Source: Clostridia bacterium (lineage in GTDB: Bacteria; Bacillota; Clostridia; Oscillospirales; UBA644). Taken from it: a DNA stretch of 48,366 bases. The stretch is taken from assembly GCA_017623895.1 (NCBI GenBank), contig JAGAOB010000013.1, positions 1-48,366 on the forward strand, read 5' to 3'. The notes beneath the pieces were generated by a model. That model ran no database searches. It saw only the letters and a list, made by a program, of their open reading frames with translations, and was not told where the DNA came from. How positions within the stretch are numbered: the first letter of the stretch is position 1; each line of letters opens with the position of its first letter. Below, one piece after another: positions 28,768 to 48,366 of this stretch. The translations under genes and the position numbers were made by a program.

Positions 28768-28771
28768 GCTT

Positions 28772-31771: not shown

Positions 31772-32832
31772 GTCGCTTTCTGATCGAAAAGCACAAGGCT
31801 CTGGTCCCCTATACTCCGGGGGAACAGCCCAAAATACAAAATCTGATCAAGCTGAACACCAACGAATCGCCCTACCCTCCCACGGCAGAGACCGTAGCGG
31901 CGGCAGAGCAAGAAGCGAAACGGCTTCACCTCTACCCCGACCCGACCTGCAGCGGACTGTGCGAGGCCTTCGCAAAACGGTGCGGCGTTTCGTCGGACCA
32001 GGTCATCGCCGTCAACGGCTCGGATGAAATTCTCAACTTTGCGTTTATGGCCTTCTGCGACGAATCCAGACCTGCGGTGTTCCCCGATATCACCTACGGA
32101 TTTTACCCCGTCTTTGCGGAGTTGAATCAGGTTCCCTACGAAGAGATTCCCCTGGAACGGGATCTATCGGTGGATCCGAGAAAGTATATGGGAATCGGGA
32201 AAAACATCTTTTTGGCAAACCCCAACGCGCCAACAGGTATCGCCCTGTCGGTAAAGGACATTGCGCAAATCGTCGCGTCCAATCCCGACAATCTGGTGGT
32301 CATCGACGAGGCGTACGTAGATTTCGGAGCAGAAAGCTGTATTTCGCTGATCCGAAAATACGACAATCTGCTTGTGACCCAAACCTTTTCCAAATCCCGC
32401 TCTATGGCGGGGGCACGGCTGGGCTTCGGCATCGGCTGTGAGGACTTGATTCGGGATCTGAATACCGTACGGTATTCCACAAATCCCTATAACGTCAACC
32501 GTATGACGATGGCGGCAGGAATCGCAACGCTGAAAAACGATGCCATTACCGTAAAAAATTGCGAAAGCATCATAAAAACGCGAGAAAGTACCATCGAAGA
32601 ATTAAATCGTATCGGCTTTGAAACCACCCCTTCCTCGGCGAACTTCATCTTCGCAAGACATCCTGAGATTGACGGAAAGGATTTGTACCTGAAATTGAAG
32701 GAACGGGGAATTTTGGTACGGCATTTTGACAAAGAACGCATCTCCCAATACAACCGCATCACCGTCGGGACTCCCGAGCAAATGCAATGTCTGACCGACG
32801 CGATCAAACAAATTATGGAGGAATCAAAATGA
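31768..32832 (+). CDS. hisC: Histidinol-phosphate aminotransferase
   Basis: KLNTNESP, NGSDE, NPNAPTG, DEAY, TFSKS...R.G. Confidence 0.95.
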   Translation: MSRFLIEKHKALVPYTPGEQPKIQNLIKLNTNESPYPPTAETVAAAEQEAKRLHLYPDPTCSGLCEAFAKRCGVSSDQVIAVNGSDEILNFAFMAFCDESRPAVFPDITYGFYPVFAELNQVPYEEIPLERDLSVDPRKYMGIGKNIFLANPNAPTGIALSVKDIAQIVASNPDNLVVIDEAYVDFGAESCISLIRKYDNLLVTQTFSKSRSMAGARLGFGIGCEDLIRDLNTVRYSTNPYNVNRMTMAAGIATLKNDAITVKNCESIIKTRESTIEELNRIGFETTPSSANFIFARHPEIDGKDLYLKLKERGILVRHFDKERISQYNRITVGTPEQMQCLTDAIKQIMEESK

Positions 32833-33416
32833 GAAACGCTACCGTTCGCCGCACGACGGCGGAAACCGACATCACCTTGTCCCTTGCCCTTGACGGCACG
32901 GGAATGTCCGACGTAAACACGGGGTGTGGATTTTTGGATCATATGCTCACCCTGTTGGCACGGCACAGCCGTTTTGACCTTTCGGTCACCTGCAAGGGAG
33001 ACCTGGAGGTAGACGATCACCACACCGTAGAGGACGTGGGAATCTGCCTCGGGCAAGCCGTGGCGGAGGCACTAAACGAAAAGCGGGGAATAAACCGCTA
33101 CGGTTCCATCCTTCTTCCTATGGACGAGGCACTGATTGCGGCGGCAATCGACCTTTCGGGACGGTGCTATCTGGGATACGATCTTTCTATTCCGACGGAA
33201 AAGGTAGGAACCTTCGATACCGAGCTGGTCAAAGAATTTTTTATGGCCTTTGCCCGTCAAGCCGCCTGCACTCTGCATCTGAAGCAGATGGCGGGAGAAA
33301 ACGCTCACCACATCATTGAAGGCGCCTTTAAGGCCTTCGGGCGGATTCTTCGCCAAGCCGCGGCCGTAGATCCCGACGCGGCAGACGAGATCCCCTCCAC
33401 GAAGGGAGTTCTTTGA
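32829..33416 (+). CDS. hisB: Imidazoleglycerol-phosphate dehydratase (monofunctional)
   Basis: GFLDHML, DDHHTVED, PMDE, NAHHIIE, PSTKG. Confidence 0.95.
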   Translation: MRNATVRRTTAETDITLSLALDGTGMSDVNTGCGFLDHMLTLLARHSRFDLSVTCKGDLEVDDHHTVEDVGICLGQAVAEALNEKRGINRYGSILLPMDEALIAAAIDLSGRCYLGYDLSIPTEKVGTFDTELVKEFFMAFARQAACTLHLKQMAGENAHHIIEGAFKAFGRILRQAAAVDPDAADEIPSTKGVL

Positions 33417-34027
33417 TGATTGCCATCGTAGATTACGGCGTAGGCAATCTGTTTTCGCTGAAAAGCTCCTTTCTTTCCGTGGGGGCAGACGCCGTAGTCA
33501 CCGACGATGCCGAAATCCTGAAGCGTGCCGACCACATCGTACTTCCGGGCGTAGGTGCCTTCGGAGACGCAGTAAAAAAGCTGCGGGAATCGGGGTTGTA
33601 TCAAGTGGTCATCGACGAAGCCCGCGGAGGAAAGCCTCTTCTGGGGATCTGCCTTGGGATGCAAATGCTTTTGGAAAAAAGCTATGAATACGGCGAGCAC
33701 GAAGGATTAGGGCTGATCCAAGGCTCGATCCGTCCCATCGGAGACGTGATTCCGAGCAATTATAAAGTTCCTCACATCGGATGGAACGCACTGCATTTCC
33801 CCAAGCAAAAGCATCCGCTGTTCAAAAATGTGAAAGACGGGGATTACGTTTATTTCGTCCATTCGTATCACGGAACCGACTGTTCCGAAAATCTGGCGGC
33901 GACCACCGAATACGGAGGAACACTGACGGCGGCCGTGGCACAGGGAAGCATAATGGGCTGCCAATTCCATCCCGAAAAAAGCGGAGATGTCGGCCTGAAA
34001 ATTTTGAAAGCTTTTTGCGAGCTGTGA
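33416..34027 (+). CDS. hisH: Imidazole glycerol phosphate synthase, glutaminase subunit
   Basis: DYGVGN, PGVGAF, GICLGMQ, PHIGWN, FVHSY, QFHPEKS. Confidence 0.95.
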   Translation: MIAIVDYGVGNLFSLKSSFLSVGADAVVTDDAEILKRADHIVLPGVGAFGDAVKKLRESGLYQVVIDEARGGKPLLGICLGMQMLLEKSYEYGEHEGLGLIQGSIRPIGDVIPSNYKVPHIGWNALHFPKQKHPLFKNVKDGDYVYFVHSYHGTDCSENLAATTEYGGTLTAAVAQGSIMGCQFHPEKSGDVGLKILKAFCEL

Positions 34028-34039
34028 AAGGAGCCTTCT

Positions 34040-34237
34040 ATGGCAAAGCCAAAAAAGGATAAGCGTTTTATCATCAAGGAATCCTACGGCGGATTTTCCT
34101 TGGGGACCTACGTTTTAGTGGATAAAAAAACGGGCGTAAACTACCTTTATGCCAACGGCGGATATTCGGGCGGGCTTACCCTGTTGGTGGATGCCCAAGG
34201 AAAGCCCATCGTCACACCCGTGGTAGAAGAAGAATAA
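34040..34237 (+). CDS. Small protein, DUF6440-like
   Basis: RBS AAGGAG; VLVDKKTGVNYL...GYSGGLTLLVDAQGKP pattern. Confidence 0.7.
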   Translation: MAKPKKDKRFIIKESYGGFSLGTYVLVDKKTGVNYLYANGGYSGGLTLLVDAQGKPIVTPVVEEE

Positions 34238-34247
34238 GGAGCTTTTT

Positions 34248-34958
34248 ATGGTTTTATTTCCTGCCATTGACCTTTACCAAGGCAAGGCCGTCCGTTTATT
34301 GCGGGGAGATTATGAAAAAATGACCGTTTACAGCAACGATCCTCCCGAAATTGCAAAAAAATTCAAGGAAGCGGGGGCAACCCATCTTCATTTAGTGGAT
34401 TTGGAGGGAGCAAAAAACGGTGAGACCCCCAACCTGGAGACGATCAAATCCATCCTTGCGCAAACCGATCTGTTCACCGAGGTGGGAGGCGGGATTCGCA
34501 GTATGCAGGTCATTGACCGCTATCTTTCCGCGGGGGTCGACCGCGTCATTCTCGGAACTGCCGCAGTGACGGAGGAAGGCCTTGTGAAAGAAGCCGTTGC
34601 CCGATACGGAGACAAAATCGCGGTGGGCGTGGACATCAAGGACGGCTGTGTTGCCATCAAGGGATGGACCGAAACCTCGGGGATCGACGCCGTTTTCTTT
34701 TGCGAAAAAATGCAACGCCTCGGCGTTTCTACTCTGATCTGCACCGACATTTCCAAGGACGGTATGATGCAGGGAACCAATCGGGAGCTGTACCGCAAGC
34801 TGTCGGAGCAGTTTTCCATCAACCTCATCGCATCGGGCGGCGTTTCCACGCTGGACGACGTGAAGGCTCTGGCAGAAATGAATTTGTACGGTGCCATCAT
34901 CGGGAAGGCCTATTACACGGGAGCCATTGACTTGAAGGAGGCCATCGCCTTACTATGA
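34248..34958 (+). CDS. hisA: ProFAR isomerase
   Basis: PAIDL..GK.VRL..G, VDLEGA, VGGGIR, TDISKDG, ASGG. Confidence 0.95.
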   Translation: MVLFPAIDLYQGKAVRLLRGDYEKMTVYSNDPPEIAKKFKEAGATHLHLVDLEGAKNGETPNLETIKSILAQTDLFTEVGGGIRSMQVIDRYLSAGVDRVILGTAAVTEEGLVKEAVARYGDKIAVGVDIKDGCVAIKGWTETSGIDAVFFCEKMQRLGVSTLICTDISKDGMMQGTNRELYRKLSEQFSINLIASGGVSTLDDVKALAEMNLYGAIIGKAYYTGAIDLKEAIALL

Positions 34959-35713
34959 TTACCAAGCGCATCATCCCCTGTCTGGATGTAAAAGACGGCA
35001 GAGTGGTCAAGGGCGTAAACTTCCTCGGTCTTGCCGACGTCTCCTCTCCTGTATCGCTGGCCAAATACTACAGCGAGTGCGGCGCCGACGAGTTGGTGTT
35101 TTACGACATTACCGCCTCCGCAGAGGGCCGGGGTCTGTTTACCGATATTCTCCGCGAGGTAGCAAGCACAATCTTTATCCCCCTTACCGTGGGAGGCGGA
35201 ATCAACACCCTGGAGGACTTTGACCGCGTGCTGAAATGCGGTGCCGACAAGGTCAGCGTCAATTCGGGCGCCATCCGCAATCCCTCCCTTATCGGAGAAG
35301 CGGCAAAGCGGTACGGAGACCAATGCGTAGTCTTATCCGCAGACGTCAAACGGGTAGACGGCGTTTTTCGCGTCTTTTCCAAGGGCGGACGGGAAAACAC
35401 CGGAATGGAAGCCATTGAATGGATCAAGCGGGGCGTGGACGCCGGCGCGGGCGAAGTAGTGGTCAACTCCATCGACACCGACGGCGTAAAAAACGGATTC
35501 GATCTTGAAATGCTGGAGGCGGTCTGCAACGCCGTCAACGTTCCCGTGATCGCTTCGGGCGGCGCGGGAGGCATCGACCATTTCACCCAACTGTTTCGCG
35601 CCATTCCCACCATTGACGCGGGACTTGCGGCATCCATCTTCCATTTCGGAGAGGTTGCCATCCCCGACCTGAAAGAAGAATTGCATAAACAAGGAATTCC
35701 CGTAAGGAGATAA
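34955..35713 (+). CDS. hisF: Imidazole glycerol phosphate synthase, cyclase subunit
   Basis: RIIPCLDVKDGRVVKG, GADELVFYDITAS, PLTVGGGI, ASGGAG, AASIFH. Confidence 0.95.
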   Translation: MITKRIIPCLDVKDGRVVKGVNFLGLADVSSPVSLAKYYSECGADELVFYDITASAEGRGLFTDILREVASTIFIPLTVGGGINTLEDFDRVLKCGADKVSVNSGAIRNPSLIGEAAKRYGDQCVVLSADVKRVDGVFRVFSKGGRENTGMEAIEWIKRGVDAGAGEVVVNSIDTDGVKNGFDLEMLEAVCNAVNVPVIASGGAGGIDHFTQLFRAIPTIDAGLAASIFHFGEVAIPDLKEELHKQGIPVRR

Positions 35714-35716
35714 ATT

Positions 35717-36367
35717 ATGATCAATATCAACGAATTGAAATTTGACGAAAAGGGCTTGATTCCCGCCATCGTAGTGGACGCAAAAACCAAAGACGTCCTG
35801 ACCCTGGCGTATATGAACAGGGAGAGCCTTGAAATCAGCATTAAAGAAGAAAAAACCTGCTTTTGGTCCCGTTCCCGCAACGAACTGTGGAGAAAGGGAG
35901 AGACCTCGGGCAATTATCAGCATATCGTTTCTATCACCGCCGATTGCGACAAGGACGCGCTGACGGTCGTCGTGGAAAAGGACGGCCCTGCCTGCCATCT
36001 GGGGGCAGAATCCTGCTTCCATAATCCCATCTTTGAAAGCGACGAGAGACAGGCATTTTCTCTGCAATCCTTGATGACCCTCATCGAGGGCAGAAAAACC
36101 GAGAAAAAAGAAGGCTCGTACACCACCTACCTTTTTGAAAAAGGAATCGACAAGATTCTGAAAAAGGTCGGAGAGGAATGCACCGAGGTCATTATCGCAG
36201 GCAAGGCGGACGACAAAAAGGAAACCATCTACGAAATTGCCGATTTGACCTATCACGTGATGGTTCTGATGATCGAAATGGGAATCTCCCTTCAGGACAT
36301 TCACGACGAGCTTGCCTCCCGTCACGTCATCGACAAAAAGGTCAAGCAGGAAAAAATGACGAAATAA
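35717..36367 (+). CDS. hisIE: Bifunctional PR-AMP cyclohydrolase / PR-ATP pyrophosphatase
   Basis: [39 protein letters not shown]. Confidence 0.95.
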
Positions 36368-36489: not shown

Positions 36490-37329
36490 TTAAACCGTTT
36501 CGGTTTGAAAAATCGAATCAGACAGAGAAAAGAGGCTCTTGGCATTCTTCCAAAAAATCTGCTGACGCTCATCGTCGGTAAGGTTGAGCGCCAAGAAATG
36601 CTCCAGCTCCTCGACGGGAGACCACATCGGGTAATCGGTTCCGTATAAAACCCGATGAACACCGTATTTGTGAATCAGCTCTGCGGCGATCTCGGGGTGC
36701 TTCATAAAGGGGAGGCTGGAGGAACAGTCTACGTAAAGATTGGGATATTTCGCCATTTGTTCCGTGGCATCTTCCCAAATCGACCAGCCTCCGAAATGCG
36801 CACCGATCACCGTTAGATCGGGAAATTGCTCCAGCACGGGAATCAAGCGGTTTGGGTTGGAATAATCGTACCGATAATCCCCCGTGTGCATCAATACGGG
36901 CAGTCCCTCTTTTTCACAGCAGGCGTACATTTTCAAAAACCCCGCGTGATCCAAGGGACGGGCTTGAATATCGGGATGAATCTTAATTCCCTTTAAGCCC
37001 AAGGCCTTCAGGTGGGAAATTTCCCCCTCAATATCCTCACATTCGGGGTGCATCGTTCCTAGCCCCGTCAGCCGTCCTCCCGCCGCAGCCACGGAGGCTG
37101 CGATGAACTCGTTAATAGAACGAACCTGCTTTGGAGTGGTGGCAACCGATTGCACGATAAAGTGATCGGTTCCCGCCCTCACCCCAACCTCCAAAAGCTC
37201 ACCGATGGTCCCTTGAGGACAGCGGGCTGTAGTCCCATAAAAGGCGTCGGTACCCGCCACGGCTCGCGCGGCAATCTTTTCGGGGTATATATGACAATGT
37301 GCGTCAATAACAAAGCTTCCGTTTACCAT
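36490..37329 (-). CDS. Amidohydrolase_2 family TIM-barrel metalloenzyme
   Basis: IDAHCH, GIKIHP, MHTG, AHFGG, YGTDYP. Confidence 0.85.
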   Translation of the reverse strand: MVNGSFVIDAHCHIYPEKIAARAVAGTDAFYGTTARCPQGTIGELLEVGVRAGTDHFIVQSVATTPKQVRSINEFIAASVAAAGGRLTGLGTMHPECEDIEGEISHLKALGLKGIKIHPDIQARPLDHAGFLKMYACCEKEGLPVLMHTGDYRYDYSNPNRLIPVLEQFPDLTVIGAHFGGWSIWEDATEQMAKYPNLYVDCSSSLPFMKHPEIAAELIHKYGVHRVLYGTDYPMWSPVEELEHFLALNLTDDERQQIFWKNAKSLFSLSDSIFQTETV

Positions 37330-37408: not shown

Positions 37409-39916
37409 TCAATCCTTCTTCAGACCCAATTTTTCCACCGCGTCCTCCCGCATTTTGTATTTCAGGATTTTTCCTGCGGCGTTCATCGGAAAACGGTCCA
37501 CAAAGTCCACGTAGCGGGGGACCTTGTGCCGTGCCATATTGGCATTGATGTAGGCCTTCATTTCATCGGAGGTCATCGTTTCTCCCTCCTTGAGGATGAT
37601 GCAGGCCATAATTTCCTCCCCGTACTGCTTATCGGGGACTCCGATGACCTGAACATCCCGAACCTTGGGGTGGGTATAGATAAATTCCTCGATTTCCTTG
37701 GGGTAGATATTCTCTCCTCCGCGGATGATCATATCCTTCAATCTTCCCGTGATGTTGTAATTTCCCTCGGGGGTGCGGCAGGCAAGGTCGCCCGTGTGCA
37801 GCCAACCGTCCTTGTCGATGGCGGCGGCGGTGGCTTTGGGCATTTTATAATACCCTTTCATAATGTTATAGCCGCGGGCAACGAATTCTCCGTTCACACC
37901 GTCGGGACAGTCTTCACCCGTCTCGGGATCGACGATCTTACATTCTACGTTTGCAAAGGCAGATCCCACGGTTTCGGTGCGAACCTCAAGGGAATCGTAA
38001 TAGCTGGACATCGTGCATCCGGGGGATGCCTCGGTCTGACCGTAAACCGAAACGATCTCTCTCATATTCATATTGTCGGGCTGTGCCGCCTGCTTCATCA
38101 GGTCGGCGGGACAGTTCGCCCCTGCCATAATTCCGATGCGCATATAGGAAAAGTCTGTCTTCTTGAAATCCTCGTGCTGCATCATTGCAATGAACATCGT
38201 GGGCACTCCGTTGAACGCCGTAATATGCTCGTTGTGCACACACGCCAAGGCAGGCTTGGGCGAGAAATAGGGCAAGGGGTACATCGTCGCTCCGTGGGTC
38301 ATCGACGCGGTCATCGACAGCACCATTCCGAAGCAGTGGAACATCGGGACTTGAATCATCATACGGTCCGCCGTAGACAAATCCATGTGGTCTCCGATAT
38401 ATTTTCCGTTGTTGACCACGTTGTAGTGGGTCAGCATCACGCCCTTGGGAAATCCCGTGGTTCCCGACGTATATTGCATATTGCAAACGTCGTCCTTATC
38501 CACCAATGCGGCCATACGGGCAACCTCGGCCAAGGGGACCTGGGGGGCGCGGGCAAGGGCTTCTTCCCACGTCATGCACCCCGCTTGACGGAATCCTACG
38601 GTGATCACGTTCCGCAAGAAGGGAAGGCGACGGGCGTGAAGGGCATCCCCCGACTTCATCGTCTCCAATTCGGGGCAGAGCTGAGAAATAATCTGACCGT
38701 AATGATTGTCCTTTCCGCCCTCGGTAAGAATCAGCGTATGGGTATCGGATTGACGAAGCAGGTACTCCACCTCCGCGATCTTATACGCGGTGTTGACGGT
38801 GACCAGCACCGCACCGATCTTTACCGTCGCCCAAAAGGCAATGTACCATTGGGGCACGTTAGAGCACCAAACGGCAACGTGATGTCCGGCCTTGACCCCC
38901 ATAGAAATCAAAGAACGGGCAAAGGTATCCACGTCATCGCGAAATTCGCTGTAGGTACGGGTATAGTCCAAGGTCGTATACTTGAAGGCGTATTGATCGG
39001 GGAATTCCTCCACCATACGGTCGAGGACCTGGGAAAAGGTCAGATCGATCAGAAGATCCTTTTTCCACACGAATTTTCCCGTCCGTGCCCGATTGTAATA
39101 CAGGGTCTTCTCGTTACGGGAGGTGTCGTTGTATTGCTTCATATAATTGACGAATTGGGTGAAGATGATCTCCATATCGTCCAATTCCTCAAGCCACTTC
39201 GGATCCCAGACCAAGGAAATAAAGCCGTCGTAATTAACCGACCGAAGGGCAAGCATCATTTCGGAAACGGGTAATTCACCCTCCCCCGCAAGGCGGTATT
39301 CAATTCCGTCTTCGGTCTTAACCCCGTCGCTGAACTGCACGTGCTTGAGATACGCTCCCAGATTCTGAATGATTTGTTCGGGAGTTTCTCCTCCGTCGAA
39401 GTAGGCAGCGGAAAGATTCCACAAGGCAGCAAGACGGTCGCTGGCAAAGCGGTTGAGCATTTCCCTCAATACGCAGGTTTTCGCGAAAACGCCCGACGTT
39501 TCTAACAACAGAGTCACGCCCCGCTCCTCCGCCTCGGGCAGAACCAAGGCAATGCGGCGGACAATTCCCTCCGGGGAAGAACCGTCGTGGGAAATTGCTT
39601 TCAGACGAACGTTGGGGATATGAAGATTCCCCGCAATGGCAAGACAGCGGCGGATCTCATCCACCGTCTCCTCCTCCTTGGAATCATCGGCAAGGTCGCA
39701 CAGCGTGTCAATGCAGGGAATCTGCAGCTTTTTCTCATACAACCGACGGAGCGTTGCGGCGGCGGCATAATCGTGAAACGCCCCGTCGCGATCGGTAAAC
39801 AGGCGATTGTTGACGTTATGTAATTCGATGCCGCCGAAGGACAGATCCACGGCAACGTCGCAAAATTCTTCAAAGGTGCTCTCGTGCCACCCACGGGTGG
39901 AAAAAGAAAGTTTCAT
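37409..39916 (-). CDS. Fusion of a xylose-isomerase/AP-endonuclease-2-like TIM barrel and an acyl-CoA synthetase (AMP-binding)
   Basis: N-terminal KLSFST.G...GIEL...GEG.LP...YDG; C-terminal YTSGTTGFPKG, YGQTE, WLHTGD, GR.KDMIIRGGENIYP.EIE, GKI.K; ATG 39916 after GAGGAGG. Confidence 0.85.
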   Translation of the reverse strand: MKLSFSTRGWHESTFEEFCDVAVDLSFGGIELHNVNNRLFTDRDGAFHDYAAAATLRRLYEKKLQIPCIDTLCDLADDSKEEETVDEIRRCLAIAGNLHIPNVRLKAISHDGSSPEGIVRRIALVLPEAEERGVTLLLETSGVFAKTCVLREMLNRFASDRLAALWNLSAAYFDGGETPEQIIQNLGAYLKHVQFSDGVKTEDGIEYRLAGEGELPVSEMMLALRSVNYDGFISLVWDPKWLEELDDMEIIFTQFVNYMKQYNDTSRNEKTLYYNRARTGKFVWKKDLLIDLTFSQVLDRMVEEFPDQYAFKYTTLDYTRTYSEFRDDVDTFARSLISMGVKAGHHVAVWCSNVPQWYIAFWATVKIGAVLVTVNTAYKIAEVEYLLRQSDTHTLILTEGGKDNHYGQIISQLCPELETMKSGDALHARRLPFLRNVITVGFRQAGCMTWEEALARAPQVPLAEVARMAALVDKDDVCNMQYTSGTTGFPKGVMLTHYNVVNNGKYIGDHMDLSTADRMMIQVPMFHCFGMVLSMTASMTHGATMYPLPYFSPKPALACVHNEHITAFNGVPTMFIAMMQHEDFKKTDFSYMRIGIMAGANCPADLMKQAAQPDNMNMREIVSVYGQTEASPGCTMSSYYDSLEVRTETVGSAFANVECKIVDPETGEDCPDGVNGEFVARGYNIMKGYYKMPKATAAAIDKDGWLHTGDLACRTPEGNYNITGRLKDMIIRGGENIYPKEIEEFIYTHPKVRDVQVIGVPDKQYGEEIMACIILKEGETMTSDEMKAYINANMARHKVPRYVDFVDRFPMNAAGKILKYKMREDAVEKLGLKKD

Positions 39917-39918
39917 TC

Positions 39919-41298
39919 TCAAGCCTCCTCGTAAACGATCTTATTGACGGCGTTGATATAGGCACGAATCCCCGCACCGACGATGTCGGTGGAAATTCCG
40001 TTGCCCGAATACAGCCTTCCGTTGGAGCGAAGCTTTACGATGGCAGACCCTACCGCTTCCTTTCCTTCCGTAACCGATTGAATCTGAAAATCGTCCAATT
40101 CATAGTGGTGGCCGATGATCTGCTCAATGGCCTTAAATGCGGCGTCCATCGGACCGTCTCCGATGCAGATGCCGGGTAATTCCTTCCCGTCCCGCTCCAG
40201 AGTGATCTGGGCACTGGCAGAAATAATATTGCCGTTGTTGATCACGTAGCTTTTCAGCTTATAAGAAGCGGGAACCTGCAGCGCTACGCTGGCAACGATG
40301 GCCTCCAGCTCCTTAGCACCCACGGTTTTACGGTCCGCCACCCGCTGAAACTCTTCGTAGACCCGTCCGTTGTCTTCCTCGGAAAGATCGTAGCCCAAAT
40401 TCATCACCGCGGCAGTAACGGCGTCTTGGTCGTCACTCTTATCCAGATGGATCGTCTGATCGGGTACCGAAGCGGCGGGGGCTACGGGACGATCGCTTTT
40501 GGAATTTCCCGCAATCCAACGGATCTGTCCGACGGTACGGTGAAGCTCGGTTACGCGGACGGTAGAAGAAAACCCGTAGGTATTTCCGCAATTTTGAATC
40601 ATACCCAAGAAGGTTTCCAGAGAAACGCCGTCTCCCTCCACGCAGGTCTTGACGCAATCCGCCCCTGCCCGAACGGCAAGAATGGCGCAGGCGCAGGCAA
40701 GTCCGTTTTTATCGCTGCAACGAACGCTGACAGGGACCGCACAGATCTCCTTGATCCCTGCGGCAAAGCGGGCAAAATCATCGGGCATCATTTCCGCGGC
40801 GCTGTCGCAGACCGAAACCTGGGTAGCCCCCGCAGAAACGGCGGCGACAACGGCAGATTTCAAGAACTCCGATTCAGCGCGGGTGGCGTCCACGGCACAA
40901 AATTCCACGTCAGCGCAAGCCTGCTTGGCAGCGGCAACGGCGGAGGAAATGAACTCCAGCATCTTGGGAGGTTTTTTGTGACTCAAATACTCCATTCCCA
41001 CGGGAGAAAGCGGAACCTCCACACGAATCCGAGAATGAGAAGCACCCGAAAGGGCCTGCAGGGCGTTATCCAAACTGTCGGGAGCAACCCCGACGGCGAC
41101 GGAAAGGATCGCGTTTTTCACAAAAGACGACAAGGTACGAACAAGTAGAATATCCGTTTTTCCGTTCCGAATTTCGGGAAGCTCGATCACGTCAACGGAA
41201 AGGCGTTCCAGCTGACGGGCAATTTCGATCTTCTCCTTGAACGTGTACGCACTGCCTTCCTTGCAGAGCGTCGTGTCTGAAATAACGATTTTCTTCAT
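39919..41298 (-). CDS. 2-isopropylmalate-synthase-like protein with a degenerate catalytic barrel and an intact LeuA regulatory domain
   Basis: SDTT, EKIEIARQLE, DATRAE, GDGPMDAAF, STDIV...AYINA.NK retained; LRDGEQ, HxH, GERAGN and HESGIH absent. Confidence 0.8.
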   Translation of the reverse strand: MKKIVISDTTLCKEGSAYTFKEKIEIARQLERLSVDVIELPEIRNGKTDILLVRTLSSFVKNAILSVAVGVAPDSLDNALQALSGASHSRIRVEVPLSPVGMEYLSHKKPPKMLEFISSAVAAAKQACADVEFCAVDATRAESEFLKSAVVAAVSAGATQVSVCDSAAEMMPDDFARFAAGIKEICAVPVSVRCSDKNGLACACAILAVRAGADCVKTCVEGDGVSLETFLGMIQNCGNTYGFSSTVRVTELHRTVGQIRWIAGNSKSDRPVAPAASVPDQTIHLDKSDDQDAVTAAVMNLGYDLSEEDNGRVYEEFQRVADRKTVGAKELEAIVASVALQVPASYKLKSYVINNGNIISASAQITLERDGKELPGICIGDGPMDAAFKAIEQIIGHHYELDDFQIQSVTEGKEAVGSAIVKLRSNGRLYSGNGISTDIVGAGIRAYINAVNKIVYEEA

Positions 41299-41426
41299 AA
41301 TGATATTCTCCTTTTGCGTTTTTCTTGTTCGTAACATACTTGCGTTCGGTGAAAAAAGTACAAAGCCCCGGGGTCGGCTTACACCGACTCCGGGACCGCA
41401 GAAGCGATAGGTTATCGCTCTATTTC

Positions 41427-42494
41427 TCAATCAATGGGGCAAGTCCAGCCGAAGGGATCTTCGATCTTTCCCCATTGGATACCGGTCAGGGTGTCATACA
41501 GGTGTTGGGTGACGGCGCCGATTTTTCCGTCGTTGATAATATATTTGGTTCCTTTGTAGCATAGCTCGCCGATGGGGGAAACCACTGCAGCAGTTCCGCA
41601 GCCCCAAGCCTCTTCCAGCGTTCCGTTGGATAGGGCCTCTGCCAATTCGTCCACGCTCAATAGGCGCTCGCTGACCTTGTAGCCCTCCTTACGAAGGACT
41701 TCAAGGCAGGATTTTCGGGTAATTCCGGGTAGGATCGAGCCGGAAAGCATAGGCGTGACGATTTCGCCGGCAATCTTGAACATAACGTTCATTGCGCCGA
41801 CTTCTTCAATATACTTGCGTTCCACACCGTCCAGCCAGAGAACCTGGGAATAGCCCTTCTTCTCTGCCCGTTCTCCGGCACGGTTGCTGGCGGCGTAGTT
41901 TCCGCCGCATTTTGCATAGCCCGTACCGCCACGAACGGCACGGACGTCTTCGTCCTCGATCATAATGCGAACGGGATTGATCCCTTCCTTGTAATAGCTC
42001 CCCACGGGAGAAGCGATAACGACGAAGGTGGCATTATGAACCGCGTGAACCCCCAACGTTTCGTCGTTTCCAAACAAAAAGGGACGGAGATACAGGGACG
42101 TTCCGGGGGCGGAGGGCGTCCAATCCTGCTCCATCTTCACAAACTCGGTCAGGGCTTGATACGCATCCTGCTCGGGAATCTGAGGCAGACAAAGACGCTC
42201 CGCAGAATTATTCAGACGGCGGATATTCTCCATAGGACGGAACAGCTGAACCTTCCCGTCGGCACGGCGGTACGCCTTCAGACCCTCGAAAATTTCAGAG
42301 CCGTAGTGCAAAACCGTAGACGCGGGATGGAGGGAAAGATTGGCAAAGGGCACGATGCGTGCATCGTACCAGCCCTTTTCCCGAGAATAATCCATAATAA
42401 ACATATGATCGGTAAAAAACTTTCCGAATCCAAGGGTGGAAGCCTCGGGCTTTTCCTTGGGCGCGGTGGTTTTCGTAACGGAAATATTCAACAT
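41427..42494 (-). CDS. ilvE: Branched-chain amino acid aminotransferase
   Basis: FTDHMF, LHYG..FEGLKAY, LYLRP, AKCGGNYA, EVGAMN, ILPGITR, GTAAVVSP. Confidence 0.95.
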   Translation of the reverse strand: MLNISVTKTTAPKEKPEASTLGFGKFFTDHMFIMDYSREKGWYDARIVPFANLSLHPASTVLHYGSEIFEGLKAYRRADGKVQLFRPMENIRRLNNSAERLCLPQIPEQDAYQALTEFVKMEQDWTPSAPGTSLYLRPFLFGNDETLGVHAVHNATFVVIASPVGSYYKEGINPVRIMIEDEDVRAVRGGTGYAKCGGNYAASNRAGERAEKKGYSQVLWLDGVERKYIEEVGAMNVMFKIAGEIVTPMLSGSILPGITRKSCLEVLRKEGYKVSERLLSVDELAEALSNGTLEEAWGCGTAAVVSPIGELCYKGTKYIINDGKIGAVTQHLYDTLTGIQWGKIEDPFGWTCPID

Positions 42495-42508
42495 AGCCAA
42501 AGCTCCTT

Positions 42509-43042
42509 TCAATAATCTGCGCCCAGCTTCATCGTGTTGAGATTGATCTCAAGCATATCGGCACGCTTGGCGGAGATGACTTTCCCCAAGGCGGTGCGGA
42601 CGCTGTCCTCGTCAAAATCGTTGAGGACCTTCAGAATCTTCCCTACCAGAATCATATTGGCAAGGGTGGGAGTCCCGTTATCGCTTGCCATCTGAGTGGC
42701 GGGAACGGGATAAACCGTCACGTCGGTACGGTTGACGGAACGGGAAACCAAGGTAGAATCGACGAAAATGATTCCACCGGGGGCCACGGAGGATTCGTAT
42801 TTATCCAGAGAAGGCAGGTTCATTGCAACCAAAACGTCGGGGCGGGAAACGATGGGAGATCCCACGGTTTCGTCTCCCACGATCACACCGCAGGACGCAG
42901 TGCCACCCCGCATTTCGGGGCCGTAGGAGGGAAGCCAGCTGACGTTTTTGCCATCCATCAATCCCTTATACGCAATAAATTTACCCGCAAACAGGATACC
43001 CTGTCCGCCGAAGCCGGAAAAGAGAAATTGTTTCGTGCTCAT
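42509..43042 (-). CDS. 2-oxoacid:ferredoxin oxidoreductase gamma subunit
   Basis: GFGGQG, PSYGPEMRGG, ANMILVG. Confidence 0.9.
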   Translation of the reverse strand: MSTKQFLFSGFGGQGILFAGKFIAYKGLMDGKNVSWLPSYGPEMRGGTASCGVIVGDETVGSPIVSRPDVLVAMNLPSLDKYESSVAPGGIIFVDSTLVSRSVNRTDVTVYPVPATQMASDNGTPTLANMILVGKILKVLNDFDEDSVRTALGKVISAKRADMLEINLNTMKLGADY

Positions 43043-43797
43043 TTCGTTTCCTCCTTTGCGGCAGACCGATCCTTATACACGCCCAAGGGGTAGTAGGGGA
43101 TCATCTTCTCGTCGATCCACTCCAGCGCCTTTTGGGGCGTCATTCCCCAGTTGGTGGGGCAGGACGAAAGGACCTCAACCAGGGAGAATCCCTTGCCGTC
43201 GATCTGATTTTGGAACGCCTTCTTAATAGCGGCCTTTGCAGTTTTGATATTCTTTACGCTGTTGACGGTGACACGGGTCAAATATTCGGGGCCGTCCAGC
43301 TCGGAGAGCAACTCACAAACCTTAATGGGGAATCCGCAATGATTGGTATCGCGGCCGTAGGGGGAGGTCTGGGTCACCTGTCCGGGAAGGGAGGTGGGAG
43401 CCATCTGACCGCCCGTCATTCCATAAATGGCGTTGTTAATAAAAATAACGGTGATGTTTTCGTTGCGGGCGGCGGCGTGAACCGTTTCCGCCATTCCGAT
43501 AGAGGCCAGATCACCATCGCCCTGATAAGTAAAGACCACGTGGTTTTCCGGATCGGCACGCTTTACCCCCGTAGCAACAGCAGGTGCCCGTCCGTGGGCC
43601 GCCTCGATCATATCGCAGGCAAAATAATTATACGCCATAACGGAGCAACCGACGGGAGCGACGCCGATGGTCTTTCCCTCAATCCCCAGCTCGTCGATGA
43701 CTTCGGCGACGAGGCGGTGAACGATCCCGTGAGTGCATCCGGGACAATAATGCATAGGAGCGTCGGTTAACGCGTGGGGCTTATCAAATACAACCAT
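43039..43797 (-). CDS. 2-oxoacid:ferredoxin oxidoreductase beta (TPP-binding) subunit, Vor type
   Basis: YCPGCTHG, VGC, HGRA, YQGDGD...INNAIYGMTGGQ, CPTNW. Confidence 0.92.
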   Translation of the reverse strand: MVVFDKPHALTDAPMHYCPGCTHGIVHRLVAEVIDELGIEGKTIGVAPVGCSVMAYNYFACDMIEAAHGRAPAVATGVKRADPENHVVFTYQGDGDLASIGMAETVHAAARNENITVIFINNAIYGMTGGQMAPTSLPGQVTQTSPYGRDTNHCGFPIKVCELLSELDGPEYLTRVTVNSVKNIKTAKAAIKKAFQNQIDGKGFSLVEVLSSCPTNWGMTPQKALEWIDEKMIPYYPLGVYKDRSAAKEETK

Positions 43798-44870
43798 TAG
43801 TTGGCACCTCCGATCTTGGCAGCGGCAGTACGGATGGATTCCAGAACCTGCTCGGGAGAAGGGATCATTCCGCCCACCCGATTGCACAGGGTGACGGGAA
43901 CCTTACATTCGGTAGCAAGACGAACGTCCTCGATCATCTGTCCCATAGACAGCTCCACGGAGATCATCGCCTTGACTTGATCTGCGGCCTTGCGGAAGGG
44001 TACAACGGGGAAGGGCCACAGGGTGATGGGACGAATCATACCAACCTTGATGCCATCCTTGCGGGCCTCGTCGATGGCGTTCTTGGAAACGCGGGCGGCA
44101 ATTCCGAAGGCGGCAATGGCGATGTCTGCATCGTCCATCAAATATTCCTCGTACATCGTTTCGTTTTCTTCGATGGTCTTGTAACGGTCGAAGCGTTCAA
44201 AATTGGTTTGCTCCAACGCAGCAGGATCCAAGAAAAGGGAGTTGACGATATTGTGCTCCCGTTCCAGCTTCGTGCCCGTCGTTGCCCAAGGCTTTTCTAC
44301 GGGAGCACCCACCTTCAGCTCGTTGAGAGCTACAGGCTCCATCATCTGTCCCATCGTACCGTCGGCCAAAAGCATCGTAGTCATCCGATATTTGTCCGCA
44401 AGGTCAAAGCCCTTGACGGTCAGCTCTGCCATTTCCTGTACCGACGCGGGGGCAAGAACAATCATCTTGAAATCGCCGTGTCCGCCTGCGCGAGTCGCTT
44501 GGAAATAATCCGACTGGCTGGGCTGGATTCCGCCCAAGCCGGGACCACCCCGCTGAACATTGACCACCAACGCGGGAAGGTCGGATCCTGCAAGATAAGA
44601 CAACCCCTCCCCTTTCAGGGAAATTCCCGGGCTGGAGGACGAGGTCATAACCCGTTTGCCCGTAGAGGCAACGCCGTAGACCATATTGATGGCGGCGATT
44701 TCACTCTCCGCCTGCAAAAAGCATCCGCCGATCTTGGGCATCCGCTTTGCCATATAAGCGGCAACCTCCGTTTGGGGAGTAATGGGATAGCCGAAATAAT
44801 GACGGCAGCCCGCAATGATCGCGGCTTCCGCAATGGCTTCGTTGCCCTTCATCAAAACTTTATCAGACAC
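43797..44870 (-). CDS. vorB: 2-oxoisovalerate:ferredoxin oxidoreductase alpha subunit
   Basis: MKGNEA, GYPITPQ, QAESE, TSSSSPG, RGGPGLG.IQP.Q.DY, GGHGD; start GTG 44870 (alternative 44879). Confidence 0.85.
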   Translation of the reverse strand: MSDKVLMKGNEAIAEAAIIAGCRHYFGYPITPQTEVAAYMAKRMPKIGGCFLQAESEIAAINMVYGVASTGKRVMTSSSSPGISLKGEGLSYLAGSDLPALVVNVQRGGPGLGGIQPSQSDYFQATRAGGHGDFKMIVLAPASVQEMAELTVKGFDLADKYRMTTMLLADGTMGQMMEPVALNELKVGAPVEKPWATTGTKLEREHNIVNSLFLDPAALEQTNFERFDRYKTIEENETMYEEYLMDDADIAIAAFGIAARVSKNAIDEARKDGIKVGMIRPITLWPFPVVPFRKAADQVKAMISVELSMGQMIEDVRLATECKVPVTLCNRVGGMIPSPEQVLESIRTAAAKIGGAN

Positions 44871-44879
44871 GGTAATCAC

Positions 44880-45086
44880 TCACCTTTCCACTTTGATAAC
44901 GCAGTCGGGACACATCGTTGCGCAGAACGCACATCCCACGCAGGCGGCCTCGTCGGTCAATACCGCAGGGTGATGTCCCTTTTTGTTGATTTGGTCGGGA
45001 GCCAGCTGCAAAAGCTTTTTCGGGCAGGCATCCACGCACAATCCGCAGCCCTTGCAGGAGTCAGTCTTAAAGGTTAATTTTGCCAT
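44880..45086 (-). CDS. 2x[4Fe-4S] ferredoxin (oxidoreductase delta subunit)
   Basis: CKGCGLCVDACP and CVGCAFCATMCP. Confidence 0.92.
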   Translation of the reverse strand: MAKLTFKTDSCKGCGLCVDACPKKLLQLAPDQINKKGHHPAVLTDEAACVGCAFCATMCPDCVIKVER

Positions 45087-45130
45087 ACTACATCTCCGTT
45101 CGAATAGAATGTCGGGGACAATTCCCCACA

Positions 45131-45793
45131 TTACAATTTTTTCTGAAGTTCCAGAGGGAACAGATTTTCAATTTTTCCTTGCAGTTTCGGGAATATTTCT
45201 TTGGGGACAGAGGTCATAACCACGGGAATCGACATCAGATTTGAAACCGTTTCGGCATAAGAAACCGAATCAAAAATCACGTCGGGATCGGTTTCGCGTC
45301 CCAGGTTGGTGTTGTTTACGATCCCCGTAAAGGGAATCCCGCCCGCCGCCTCGATTTCCCGCAGAACGTCCACGGTATCTTGGGGCGTACGGGTCAAAGG
45401 ACGGGAAGCGTTGATCACCGCGAGCATTTCGTAATCCTTTTCCTCTAAAATCCGAGGAGCGATACGACCCAACGCCAAAGCCCCCCGATCGTCTCCCCCC
45501 ACGTCGATGACCACGCGCAGGTCCTTGTCATCGGTCACGGCGTACATATCCTGGGGCAGGGCAGGGAGATCCACGTTGGTGTTGGCGTATTCGGAACAGA
45601 TCAGGCGAATGCCCAGATCCTCGAATTGCCCCCGACTGTCCTTGGAGCGAAAATAGGGATTGACAATGTCCAGATCCGCCACCGCAACCCGCGGATAGCG
45701 TTCCCGCAGAGCGACGGCAAGGTTCACCGCCACGTTGGTTTTCCCGCTTCCGTAATGCCCGCAAAGCAGGGTAATTCGCTTAAAGTCTCTCAT
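45131..45793 (-). CDS. P-loop NTPase (MinD/ParA-like) associated with vor genes
   Basis: GHYGSGKT, DLDIVNPYFRS, DVGGD; alternative in-frame start at 45850. Confidence 0.75.
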   Translation of the reverse strand: MRDFKRITLLCGHYGSGKTNVAVNLAVALRERYPRVAVADLDIVNPYFRSKDSRGQFEDLGIRLICSEYANTNVDLPALPQDMYAVTDDKDLRVVIDVGGDDRGALALGRIAPRILEEKDYEMLAVINASRPLTRTPQDTVDVLREIEAAGGIPFTGIVNNTNLGRETDPDVIFDSVSYAETVSNLMSIPVVMTSVPKEIFPKLQGKIENLFPLELQKKL

Positions 45794-45855
45794 AGGCTTT
45801 TTCTGCTTGGCGATTCCCGCAGGGCGGGAGAATCGCGTGAAGTCTTTCATAAGTA

Positions 45856-48144
45856 TCACAATTTGTTTCGCTGGATCTTTCCGCTGACCGATTTGGGTAA
45901 CGCGTCGCGGAAGACCACGATGCGGGGGTATTTGTAGGGTGCGGTTTTTTGCTTGACGTAGGTCTGAATTTCTTTTTTCAGATCCTCGGTAGGCTCGGTG
46001 CCGTTGACAAGAACGATGGATGCCTTAACCACCTGCCCCCGAACCTCGTCGGGCTCGGCGGAAACGCCACATTCCAGGACGTAGGGCAATTCCATAATTA
46101 CGCTTTCGATTTCAAAGGGGCCGATACGGTAGCCAGAGGATTTGATCACGTCGTCGGCTCTACCTACGTACCAGAAGAATCCGTCCTCGTCCTTCCACGC
46201 CACGTCGCCCGTGTGGTAATAGCCGTCGTGCCAATTCTCGGCGGTCTTTTCCTCGTCGCCGTAATATCCCACGGCAAGTCCGCAGGGATGTCCGTTCTTG
46301 AGATTGACCACGATCTCCCCCGTTTCTCCCACGGGGACCTGATTGCCGTCGGCATCGTGCAGCTCCACGTCGTAAACGGGAACCTTTCGACCCATAGATC
46401 CGATCTTGTGGGGAGCCCCGACCAGATTGCCGATCATCATCGTGCTTTCGGTCTGACCGAAGCCTTCAATGATCTGCAGGCCCGTCGCCTTTTCGAACTG
46501 ACGGTACACCTCGGGGTTCAGAGCCTCACCTGCCGTGGTCATATGCTTAACCGACGAGAAATCGTATTTGGAAATATCCTGCTTGATCATCATCCGCAGC
46601 ATCGTAGGCGGCGCACAGAAGGTGGTGATCCGATGCTCGGCAAACATAGGCAGAATATCGGCGGCGTCGAAACGGCCAAAGTCGTAGACGAAAATTGCCG
46701 CCTCACAGAGCCATTGTCCATAGAGCTTGCCCCACATTGATTTTGCCCAACCCGTGTCGGAGATGGTGAAGTGCAAGCCGTCGGGGTCCACGTTGTGCCA
46801 ATACTTTGCGGTATGGAAATGTCCCAAGGGATATTTATAGTTATGTGCCGCCAGCTTGGGATATCCCGAAGTGCCCGAGGTAAAGAACATCAGCATCAGA
46901 TCTTCGCCGCAGGGTGCGTCCTCGGGGCGGTTGTAATGGGTGCTGTACAGCGGATACTCCTCATCGAAGCACCGCCAGCCCTCGCGGGTGCCATTGACCA
47001 AGATCTTATGCTTCAGATCGGGGCATTTTTCTGCGGCAATCTCCACCTGACGGGCCGTATCTCCGTCTGCGGTACAAAGGATGGCGGAGACTCCTGCACA
47101 TTGAAAACGGTATTCAAAATCGTGCTCCTGCAGTTGGTTGGTGGCAGGAATGGCGATGGCGCCAAGCTTGTTCAGTCCCATCATCGCGAACCAGAATTGA
47201 TAGTGGCGCTTCAGTACCAGCATCACCCGATCGCCCTTTTTGATTCCAAGGGATTTGAAATAGTTCGCACATTGGGAAGAAGCCTTTTTGATATCCTTGA
47301 AGGTCAGCCGACGGACGGTCTTGTCCTTGGAGATGTGAAGCATCGCCAATTTTTCGGGCTCTCGCTCCGCCAAGGCGTCCACAAGATCAAAGGCAAAGTT
47401 AAAGGTTTCGGTATTTTTGAATTGAATGGAGGTTGGCGTTCCGTTTTCATCCTCGGTAACGTCGATAAATTTGCGGTAAATGCGGTCCTTCGTATCGAAG
47501 GTCTTGACCCGCTTTTCCGAAACGGATTTGACCTCGGTCAGCTCGGGAATAGGTTCTCCCGTAGGATTGAGAACGATAGCGTAAAAGATACAGTCCTGTC
47601 CATTGACGGCGATCATCCCGTGGGGGGTATCGGAATCAAAATAGATACTGTCGCCGGGGCCGAGCACTTCCTTGTGCTCTCCGACCTGAACCATCAGATT
47701 TCCTTCGATGATAAGGTCGCACTCCTGCCCCGCGTGGGTGGTCAGCTCGATCTGCTTGTTCTGTGCCTCGGGGTCGTAGACGCTGCGAACGTACAGAGGC
47801 TCGGCGATGCGGTCCCGAAAGGCATAGGCAAGATTGTAATAGGTCATCCCGTGCGCCTTGGAGACCTCCTGCCCCGCCCCCTTGCGGGTAACGGTGTAGG
47901 ATTGCAGTTTGGGGCTCTGCCCCTCGATAATATCGGTGACGTTGACCTTCAACGCCATAGCGCACCGATAGATAAACGCAAAGTTCAGATCGCTTTTCCC
48001 TGCTTCACATTGCAGGTATTCGGCTTCGGACACGCCCGTTTGTGCCGCCATTTCCGCGGCGGACAAGCCCTCCAGCTGACGCAGCTCGCAAATGCGCCCT
48101 GCCATCTCACGGATCTTGACATCAAGTCCGCTGATTTGTTCCAT
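45856..48144 (-). CDS. Fusion of XRE HTH, cupin and medium-chain acyl-CoA synthetase
   Basis: RI.ELR..EG.S..EMA...GVS...Y...E.G (XRE); H.GQE...G...LGPGDSIYFDS..PHG (cupin); FTSGTSGYPK, GFGQTE, YHTGD, GRADD.IKSSGYRIGPFE, LPKS.SGKI.R; RBS AGGAG. Confidence 0.9.
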   Translation of the reverse strand: MEQISGLDVKIREMAGRICELRQLEGLSAAEMAAQTGVSEAEYLQCEAGKSDLNFAFIYRCAMALKVNVTDIIEGQSPKLQSYTVTRKGAGQEVSKAHGMTYYNLAYAFRDRIAEPLYVRSVYDPEAQNKQIELTTHAGQECDLIIEGNLMVQVGEHKEVLGPGDSIYFDSDTPHGMIAVNGQDCIFYAIVLNPTGEPIPELTEVKSVSEKRVKTFDTKDRIYRKFIDVTEDENGTPTSIQFKNTETFNFAFDLVDALAEREPEKLAMLHISKDKTVRRLTFKDIKKASSQCANYFKSLGIKKGDRVMLVLKRHYQFWFAMMGLNKLGAIAIPATNQLQEHDFEYRFQCAGVSAILCTADGDTARQVEIAAEKCPDLKHKILVNGTREGWRCFDEEYPLYSTHYNRPEDAPCGEDLMLMFFTSGTSGYPKLAAHNYKYPLGHFHTAKYWHNVDPDGLHFTISDTGWAKSMWGKLYGQWLCEAAIFVYDFGRFDAADILPMFAEHRITTFCAPPTMLRMMIKQDISKYDFSSVKHMTTAGEALNPEVYRQFEKATGLQIIEGFGQTESTMMIGNLVGAPHKIGSMGRKVPVYDVELHDADGNQVPVGETGEIVVNLKNGHPCGLAVGYYGDEEKTAENWHDGYYHTGDVAWKDEDGFFWYVGRADDVIKSSGYRIGPFEIESVIMELPYVLECGVSAEPDEVRGQVVKASIVLVNGTEPTEDLKKEIQTYVKQKTAPYKYPRIVVFRDALPKSVSGKIQRNKL

Positions 48145-48169
48145 AAAAGTTTCTCCTATCCGGGACGAA

Positions 48170-48366
48170 AATAAAAACACACCCGTCCCAAAGCTGATAA
48201 AACCTTGAGACGAGTGCCTGTTGCATCCATAACACCCGCGGTACCACTCAAATTGCGGAAAACCCGCCTCTCTTGAGGTCCAACAACCCCTATGCCTTTA
48301 CGCAGCAATCACGGGGAGATTCTACCGACCCTTTGAAGGGTGTTCTTTCTCCCGACTCGGAAGTGA
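48170..48366 (-). promoter_or_regulatory. T-box riboswitch (5'-truncated by the window edge) with terminator
   Basis: Minus strand: stem II with S-turn (GAA...GGTA), AATTTGAGTGGTACCGCG T-box at 48237-48254, terminator CACTCGTCTCAAGG/CTTTGGGACGGGTG followed by a T-rich tract. Confidence 0.9.

Follow-up and report, generated by a model that had tools for sequence, protein, structure and literature searches.

What does a 2-isopropylmalate synthase (LeuA) do once its active site has gone, and why would a bacterium keep it? The question is raised by a gene on the minus strand of contig JAGAOB010000013.1 (GenBank assembly GCA_017623895.1) from a Clostridia bacterium (Oscillospirales; UBA644). This contig, analysed over its full length of 48,366 nucleotides, is referred to below as the window, and the gene product as dead LeuA. 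The first-pass annotation had placed the gene correctly at 39919..41298, without naming a strand, and had read the product as an enzyme turned amino-acid sensor that regulates a neighbouring synthetase or the 2-oxoacid:ferredoxin oxidoreductase (Vor) in trans. We favour, with a probability of about 0.5, the reading that dead LeuA is a non-catalytic leucine-sensing partner that would exert feedback on an isovalerate-type acyl-CoA ligase encoded next to it.

Loss of the catalytic apparatus in an intact gene

Comparison with the Neisseria meningitidis isopropylmalate synthase (3rmj) places the RDGEQ stretch in a four-residue gap (DTTLRDGEQSPG against DTTLC----KEGS) and pairs HCHNDLG with RCSDKNG at residue level; the aligned region stops with NGLG against EGDG, immediately short of the position of GERAGN. 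In an alignment with canonical LeuAs, the glutamate of the EDA motif reads V, a gap takes the place of GERAGN and the protein lacks the HESGIH stretch, and the columns of the substrate arginine and the catalytic glutamate hold C and V in the window protein. The motif losses described in the first-pass annotation are thus borne out by alignment, with DTTLCKEGS found at residues 8-16 and RCSDK at residues 193-197. We take the Mycobacterium tuberculosis residue numbering to map onto the RD, HxH, EDA and HxSGxH motifs. In that enzyme the metal ligands are Asp81, His285 and His287, and the other chain places His379 and Tyr410 close to the active site (PMC5498780); substitutions of R80 and E218 destroy activity according to a review table (PMC10464499).

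These losses extend across the family. From 150 listed representatives, 110 of 445-520 aa were retained and 40 shorter or longer ones dropped; after the query was added and four LeuA-like rows (502-516 aa) were set apart, the family alignment held 107 rows. The metal-Asp column shows a gap in 30 rows, E in 15, Q in 11 and D in 8, and histidine is absent from the six commonest residues at both His columns of HxH. Gaps cover GERAGN in 105-106 of the 107 rows and HESGIH in 106-107. The substrate-Arg column still reads R in 34 rows and the catalytic-Glu column E in 25. In the Atlas, PF22617 is missing from clusters of the dead-LeuA family or present in 21% of members, against 100% in a canonical LeuA cluster, and a Pfam scan of dead LeuA gave no HCS_D2 match and no nucleic-acid-binding domain. 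Because the metal ligands, the RD pair, the catalytic glutamate and the HxSGxH subdomain are all lost, dead LeuA, as read from its sequence, cannot be a metal-dependent isopropylmalate synthase.

Three LeuA-like representatives, P0252, P0259 and P0266 (503-516 aa), have partly degenerate sites and a full-length accessory region. Cysteine replaces the RD arginine in P0259 and P0266, where HxH reads R-A-Y and H-S-Q, respectively, and the HESGIH motif is also missing from P0252 and P0266. These proteins may be other LeuA-derived forms.

The overall architecture of LeuA is retained. Pfam recognises an HMGL-like domain at residues 14-230 (E 4.8e-30, 105 bits) and a LeuA_dimer domain at 328-454 (E 4.5e-30, 104.7 bits against a cut-off of 24.9). 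The best NCBIfam models are bacterial LeuA equivalogs, at 274.5 bits (cut-off 532) and 243.1 bits (cut-off 598.7), whereas CimA models reach only about 40 bits (42); by these scores dead LeuA descends from LeuA rather than CimA. An AlphaFold2 model built from a 33-row alignment has a mean pLDDT of 87.5, with the barrel mostly above 90, and its sole stretch below 50 (residues 266-281) falls exactly at the shortened accessory subdomain. Foldseek matches the barrel to 3rmj and 3ewb (target-normalised TM 0.82 and 0.91; rmsd 1.8-1.9), and the full-length matches include methylthioalkylmalate (MAM) synthase (6e1j, the top match) and M. tuberculosis LeuA, among them the leucine-bound 3fig.

The gene itself is intact, as had been noted from its 459-aa frame and good ribosome-binding site (RBS). 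Read on the minus strand, it starts with ATG at 41298 and stops with TGA at 39919-39921, and AAGGAG precedes the start by 9 nt. A word-based search listed 120 clusters with 65-86% identity to dead LeuA and lengths of 457-507 aa. An exhaustive search matched 331 cluster representatives at E<=1e-30, which puts the observation far beyond chance, and a scan of a genome collection found at least 594 stretches encoding a relative, nearly all from metagenome-assembled genomes of gut or rumen Clostridia. The LeuA_dimer domain is present in all 33 aligned members. We fetched 80 loci, four of which cut the dead-LeuA gene at a contig end; the frame is open in all 76 others (453-479 aa). Nine of the ten same-genus genomes encode dead LeuA. 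A same-genus genome (G002) carries two copies, on contigs C34 and C107, that are 85% and 79% identical to the window's.

Within the genus, the median dN/dS of the whole gene is 0.077 (nine sequences, 36 non-independent pairs, dS about 1.1). By domain it is 0.10 for the barrel, 0.098 for the linker and 0.031 for the regulatory domain, compared with 0.042 for the aminotransferase IlvE, 0.059 for the TIM domain of the adjacent ligase and 0.035 for its AMP domain. Close pairs across genera give 0.03-0.21 (130 pairs with dS <1.5; distant pairs, with dN about 0.5, are saturated and were left out). The intact frames of the orthologues and the purifying selection seen in dN/dS indicate that dead LeuA is functional and not decaying. 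Consistent loss of catalytic residues under purifying selection is what the first-pass annotation had expected of orthologues, and the frameshifts and neutral decay that it named as counter-evidence were not seen.

Regulatory domain, adjacent ligase and the proposed link to leucine

The regulatory domain is the most conserved part of dead LeuA. Between the 107 family rows and 15 canonical LeuAs (14 from the same order and P0265), 21 positions in this domain are at least 80% conserved with an identical residue in both groups. They include the G380-x-G382-P383-I384-x-A386 loop, G432, G434, S436-T437-D438-I439, A446-Y447 and N452-K453. Many more positions are conserved within the dead-LeuA family only. 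The two C-terminal strings that the first-pass annotation had quoted as signs of a preserved allosteric domain, GDGPMDAAFKAI and STDIVGAGIRAYINAVNK, are both present in the translation, and its view agrees with the LeuA_dimer score, the unchanged hallmark loops and the low dN/dS. The domain thus appears to be kept as a LeuA-type module.

A search of the PDB with the regulatory domain alone returned a single, marginal match (3f6g, E 0.32). The isolated PF08502 domain of CimA works as a specific isoleucine-recognition element (PMC13381585), which makes stand-alone sensing plausible. Since that domain reads isoleucine, membership of the domain family does not by itself fix the effector. The grounds on which leucine, rather than isoleucine or valine, would be the effector are two: the leucine-specifier T-boxes of relatives and the descent from LeuA.

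Invariably adjacent to dead LeuA is a gene for a xylose-isomerase-like TIM barrel fused to an AMP-forming acyl-CoA ligase. It lies directly downstream in every one of the 76 loci whose downstream DNA extends for 600 nt or more, and adjoins dead LeuA in 23 of the 23 genomes of the order sample that carry it. In the window the ligase ATG is 2 nt past the dead-LeuA stop, and the ligase RBS, GAGGAGG, lies within the 3' end of the dead-LeuA gene. In relatives, Vor and IlvE may be found before or after, on the opposite strand or outside the locus. Because the ligase is the sole invariant neighbour and the position of Vor and IlvE varies, the likely target is the ligase and not Vor. Of the earlier proposal, the intact pseudoenzyme is supported and the target is narrowed to the synthetase-like neighbour as the likelier of the two.

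The T-box core motif is found within 500 nt upstream in 51 of the 70 dead-LeuA loci with enough upstream DNA. Among ten small loci scanned with Rfam, nine have a T-box upstream of dead LeuA, and the leader of the tenth (L015) is cut by a contig end. All nine T-boxes, read by register with the Rfam alignments, have the leucine specifier CUC or CUG.

The distribution of canonical LeuA points in the same direction. The order sample comprised 121 genomes and was searched three times, each time apparently over the same genomes. A family profile identifies 24 genomes, the window's own included, at 528 bits or more, against at most 378 bits for canonical LeuAs, and canonical LeuA exceeds the TIGR00973 cut-off in 45 genomes. 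It is found in none of 23 dead-LeuA genomes and in 45 of the 97 others (Fisher p 5.6e-6, from related genomes that are not independent). Genera g33 and g34 each hold one genome of each kind. In the window's own genome, which is 81% complete, no LeuA_dimer gene other than dead LeuA was found, IlvD is absent and no ketol-acid reductoisomerase (KARI) exceeds the cut-off; the one aconitase-family frame stands beside one Iso_dh frame, and the two are probably aconitase and isocitrate dehydrogenase. A heterodimer with a resident LeuA was considered and rejected, there being no canonical LeuA in this or the same-genus genomes.

Fused TIM-barrel ligases also occur alone. Frames of at least 800 aa with this fusion are present in 18 order-sample genomes that lack dead LeuA, and in none of the ten such genomes that were fetched is dead LeuA upstream of the ligase. 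The T-box core motif lies directly upstream of the ligase in eight of these ten loci, and the specifier is CUC in all eight. In a FastTree phylogeny the ten partner-less ligases form one branch apart from 38 dead-LeuA-linked ligases with an SH-like support of 100; the root falls on a long outgroup branch and is unreliable. The ligases of this clade (loci L124-L133) are 842-844 aa long and their genomes mostly have canonical LeuA; at L127 the ligase is just downstream of leuA and a LeuA paralogue. The sister clade works behind CUC T-boxes without a partner, so dead LeuA would be an add-on rather than an obligatory component. By specifier and gene content, a link of the ligase to leucine appears in both clades, and dead LeuA goes with the absence of canonical LeuA.

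In rumen bacteria, synthesis of leucine by carboxylation of isovalerate is long established, and the wider trait of building leucine, valine and isoleucine from branched short-chain fatty acids has been on record since the 1960s (PMC7356843). In the mechanism that we propose, dead LeuA would keep its TIM barrel as a scaffold and its C-terminal LeuA_dimer domain as a working part, and would be made by coupled translation with the ligase. The ligase, which in relatives would be switched on by leucine starvation, most likely activates isovalerate; Vor and IlvE would then convert isovaleryl-CoA to 2-ketoisocaproate and on to leucine. By binding leucine through its regulatory domain and partnering the ligase, dead LeuA would throttle isovalerate activation. 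The outcome would be fast end-product feedback on a salvage route in bacteria without a LeuA-based pathway. We infer all of leucine binding, ligase contact, the direction of the effect and the ligase substrate.

Weighing the explanations

Several observations weigh against a leucine-sensing feedback partner. There is no leucine T-box before dead LeuA in the window or its genus, the core motif is missing from 19 of the 70 loci, and within the window the link to leucine is one of homology only. The family differs consistently from canonical LeuA in the regulatory domain (Y404 to F, E441 to G, loss of R433 and E418), and these differences could change the effector or the signalling; D330 to E is a further consistent difference. 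The exclusion between LeuA and dead LeuA comes from related genomes and one LeuA model, and one dead-LeuA genome, G107, has other LeuA-family matches below the cut-off. The ligase, to judge from the partner-less clade, does not need a dead-LeuA partner. Purifying selection acts on the barrel as well (dN/dS 0.10), which a pure sensor would not call for.

The missing T-box has left a possible trace. In the window and eight same-genus loci the spacer between ilvE and dead LeuA measures 119-135 nt and holds no T-box; Rfam gave no match in the whole window at the gathering threshold, and no partial T-box in the spacer at E<=10. The spacer contains an invariant hairpin and, also upstream of dead LeuA, a conserved ACGAACAAG box; both are identical in nine genus members, with varying flanks. 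The hairpin occurs once in the genome and has no match in Rfam. Its 12 apical nucleotides (GGTGTAAGCCGA) are identical to the distal loop of stem I in a leucine T-box that occupies the corresponding position in the genome of a neighbouring family, for which reason it looks like a T-box relic. It was probably kept for some function, such as a terminator or a processing or stability site. Other T-boxes persist. In a same-genus genome (locus L122), the leader orthologous to the window's cut T-box has the specifier GUC (Val), and a second same-genus leader, with AUC (Ile), precedes an extra HTH-cupin ligase that by position would lie past the end of the window's contig. The window's cut leader begins UC-A, giving a specifier NUC. 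Valine and isoleucine switches thus appear to hold in this genus and the leucine switch to be missing.

A fuller version of the feedback reading can be built on this, which we regard as tentative. The LeuA shell would have been kept after the de novo leucine pathway was lost and would dock, as a feedback subunit acting in trans, on the additional, degenerate-looking TIM domain of the ligase. With the leucine T-box shrunk to a hairpin, it would be the only leucine-specific control left in the genus. In its TIM domain the window's ligase carries E139, N167, Q194 and V236; at these positions the majority of 38 relatives show E, D, H and E, respectively. The four are presumably the metal positions of this barrel family, and the domain may be non-catalytic in this lineage. 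Pairwise distances over 56 loci correlate between the dead-LeuA barrel and the ligase TIM domain (r 0.76), more strongly than between the TIM and AMP domains of the ligase itself (0.70). Given the AMP domain, the partial r is 0.60 for barrel and TIM domain (0 of 999 label permutations as high) and 0.24 for the regulatory domain. This covariation may just reflect that both domains evolve fast, which counts against the docking proposal, and we treat it as a lead. A complex prediction with a fragment of the ligase (residues 1-290) scored 0.02, evidence neither way. Fused forms of dead LeuA, sought among longer proteins, were not found, which is weak evidence.

The same covariation would suit a structural or activating partner that senses nothing. 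In such a role dead LeuA would be a scaffold for ligase folding, oligomerisation or Vor docking, comparable to the small accessory proteins of other adenylating enzymes, and its regulatory domain would serve dimerisation and contacts. The invariant adjacency and tight translational coupling to the ligase, the selection on the barrel, the closer covariation of the barrel than of the regulatory domain, and the many positions conserved beyond those shared with LeuA all fit this idea. Yet constraint is strongest in the domain with which LeuA and CimA bind their effectors, its hallmark loops being unchanged, and the sister ligase clade has no such partner, so that we consider a plain scaffold unlikely. 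The selection on the barrel could also indicate a neofunctionalised enzyme, one with a new metal-independent activity or binding an acyl-CoA or 2-oxo acid, and regulated by its own C-terminal domain. The TIM-barrel fold is predicted confidently, and polar residues at D8, T10, D49, E103, K109, D137, R140 and D165 are invariant or nearly so in the family. However, several of these belong to motifs also found in canonical LeuAs (DxT of DTTL, DA.R and the D of PDT), which we take to be structural rather than catalytic. The known DRE-TIM catalytic residues are replaced by variable ones with no new invariant cluster at the old site, and dead LeuA has lost the accessory subdomain by which the active site is closed. 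We therefore judge a new enzyme quite improbable.

A regulator of gene expression, responsive to leucine and acting on RNA or DNA, would make sense of the invariant hairpin and ACGAACAAG box that stand in for the leucine T-box just upstream in this genus, with the hairpin as one possible target. Against it, Pfam finds no nucleic-acid-binding domain, the protein is equally conserved in genera with a full T-box, and the adjacency is to the ligase and to no regulatory site; we regard this as very improbable. A decaying pseudogene or annotation artefact might be suspected from the loss of all catalytic motifs and from the name 'hypothetical protein' that public sources give to family members (others are '2-isopropylmalate synthase family protein'). 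It is refuted by the 76 intact frames, by dN/dS values of 0.03-0.10 and by the at least 594 genome stretches encoding relatives. A leucine-sensing feedback partner of the ligase remains the explanation that we prefer.

Related systems and the surrounding locus

The short form of LeuA (TIGR00973/PRK00915; structures 3rmj and 3ewb, with 1sr9/3fig for the long form) has the same two Pfam domains in the same order. Dead LeuA is about 45 residues shorter, scores under half the family cut-offs and is not in a leu operon. CimA (regulatory domain 3f6g/3f6h) shares the domain family and is isoleucine-inhibited but, unlike dead LeuA, it is an active enzyme. MAM synthase (6e1j), a plant LeuA derivative recruited to another pathway, has lost the LeuA regulatory domain and kept catalysis; dead LeuA is the opposite case.

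HisZ is an inactive histidyl-tRNA synthetase paralogue that serves as the regulatory subunit of short HisG. The likeness lies in the proposed reading: in both cases an enzyme that deals with the end product would have given rise to an inactive paralogue, encoded directly before the first enzyme of the pathway and serving it as a separate allosteric subunit. The two differ in that fold and pathway are unrelated, and that the complex and histidine response of HisZ are established experimentally, whereas dead LeuA is known from sequence. Acetohydroxyacid synthase has a regulatory subunit, IlvH/IlvN (PMC13381585), and there the feedback by a branched-chain amino acid reaches the catalytic subunit through a separate sensing subunit. 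IlvH/IlvN binds valine, has an ACT-type fold that is not derived from a pathway enzyme, and targets a thiamine diphosphate (ThDP) enzyme rather than an ANL ligase. Dead LeuA shares with regulatory subunits of the HisZ and IlvH kind that it is a separate polypeptide, adjoining and co-translated with its catalytic partner.

A full-text literature search, supplements aside, returned no description of the dead-LeuA protein or its locus, and no gene assignment for the activation step of the branched-acid route. New here are the missing T-box with its relic hairpin, the LeuA exclusion, the partner-less ligase clade and the per-domain selection figures. In the order sample, dead-LeuA copies occur exactly where canonical LeuA is missing; if they were misread as LeuA, hundreds of species from gut and rumen would be mistaken for leucine prototrophs that use the classical route. 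The locus, with Vor, IlvE and the ligases beside dead LeuA, supplies candidate genes for the conversion of branched short-chain fatty acids to leucine, valine and isoleucine. If the feedback reading is true, dead LeuA would clearly exemplify a pseudoenzyme that arose from an allosteric enzyme, and an allosteric module would have moved from a biosynthetic enzyme to a salvage ligase of the ANL superfamily. Amino-acid recognition modules are now being built into biosensors (PMC13381585), and dead LeuA would then be one of natural origin that stands alone and recognises leucine.

Dead LeuA lies in a Vor/IlvE/ligase operon, whose order on the minus strand is the cut T-box, the HTH-cupin::MbcS-like ligase, a P-loop protein, Vor delta, alpha, beta and gamma, IlvE and the 128-nt spacer, followed by dead LeuA, the TIM-barrel::AMP ligase and an Amidohydro_2 gene. 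Coordinates are listed in Table 1.

Table 1. Positions of dead LeuA, its domains and the neighbouring features (window coordinates unless stated)
Feature	Position	Strand	Basis or detail
Dead-LeuA gene, 459 aa plus stop	39919..41298	minus	ORF, Pfam, NCBIfam, alignments
Shine-Dalgarno AAGGAG of dead-LeuA gene	41308..41313	minus	9 nt before ATG
HMGL-like TIM barrel without RD, HxH, GERAGN	40513..41298	minus	residues 1-262; Pfam, AlphaFold2, Foldseek
Shortened accessory/linker region, HESGIH subdomain deleted	40318..40512	minus	residues 263-327; alignment, AlphaFold2
LeuA_dimer regulatory domain	39922..40317	minus	residues 328-459; Pfam; hallmarks GDGPxDA and GxGxSTDI..AY.N..NK
Invariant 14-bp hairpin, then U-rich tract	41365..41397	minus	in 128-nt ilvE/dead-LeuA spacer 41299-41426
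Partner gene, xylose-isomerase-like TIM barrel fused to AMP-forming acyl-CoA ligase	37409..39916	minus	downstream of dead LeuA
Ligase N-terminal TIM barrel	39062-39916	minus	residues 1-285
Amidohydro_2 gene, last of block	36490..37329	minus	Pfam
Branched-chain aminotransferase IlvE, type II	41427..42512	minus	483 bits against cut-off 307
2-Oxoacid:ferredoxin oxidoreductase, subunits delta, alpha, beta, gamma	42509..45131	minus	alpha: VorB-type model, 538 bits against cut-off 399
CbiA/ParA-type P-loop protein	45131..45859	minus	
HTH_3-cupin::MbcS-like acyl-CoA ligase	45856..48180	minus	MbcS best model, 416 bits, under cut-off 850
3' part of T-box leader, cut by contig end	48203..48366	minus	specifier NUC
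Same-genus T-box leaders	4194-4439, 6940-7191 (locus L122)		

The Amidohydro_2 gene also follows the ligase in at least 27 of the 80 related loci. The HTH_3-cupin ligase architecture recurs once or twice per locus in relatives, and its cupin could be the effector-sensing counterpart for the valine and isoleucine branches.

Elsewhere in the window, on the plus strand at 28718-30494, a tRNA-synt_His family protein (381 aa) is encoded directly before a 212-aa short-form HisG. The pair heads a his operon at 28718-36367 and resembles the classic HisZ/HisG pair, with the HisZ call resting on Pfam.

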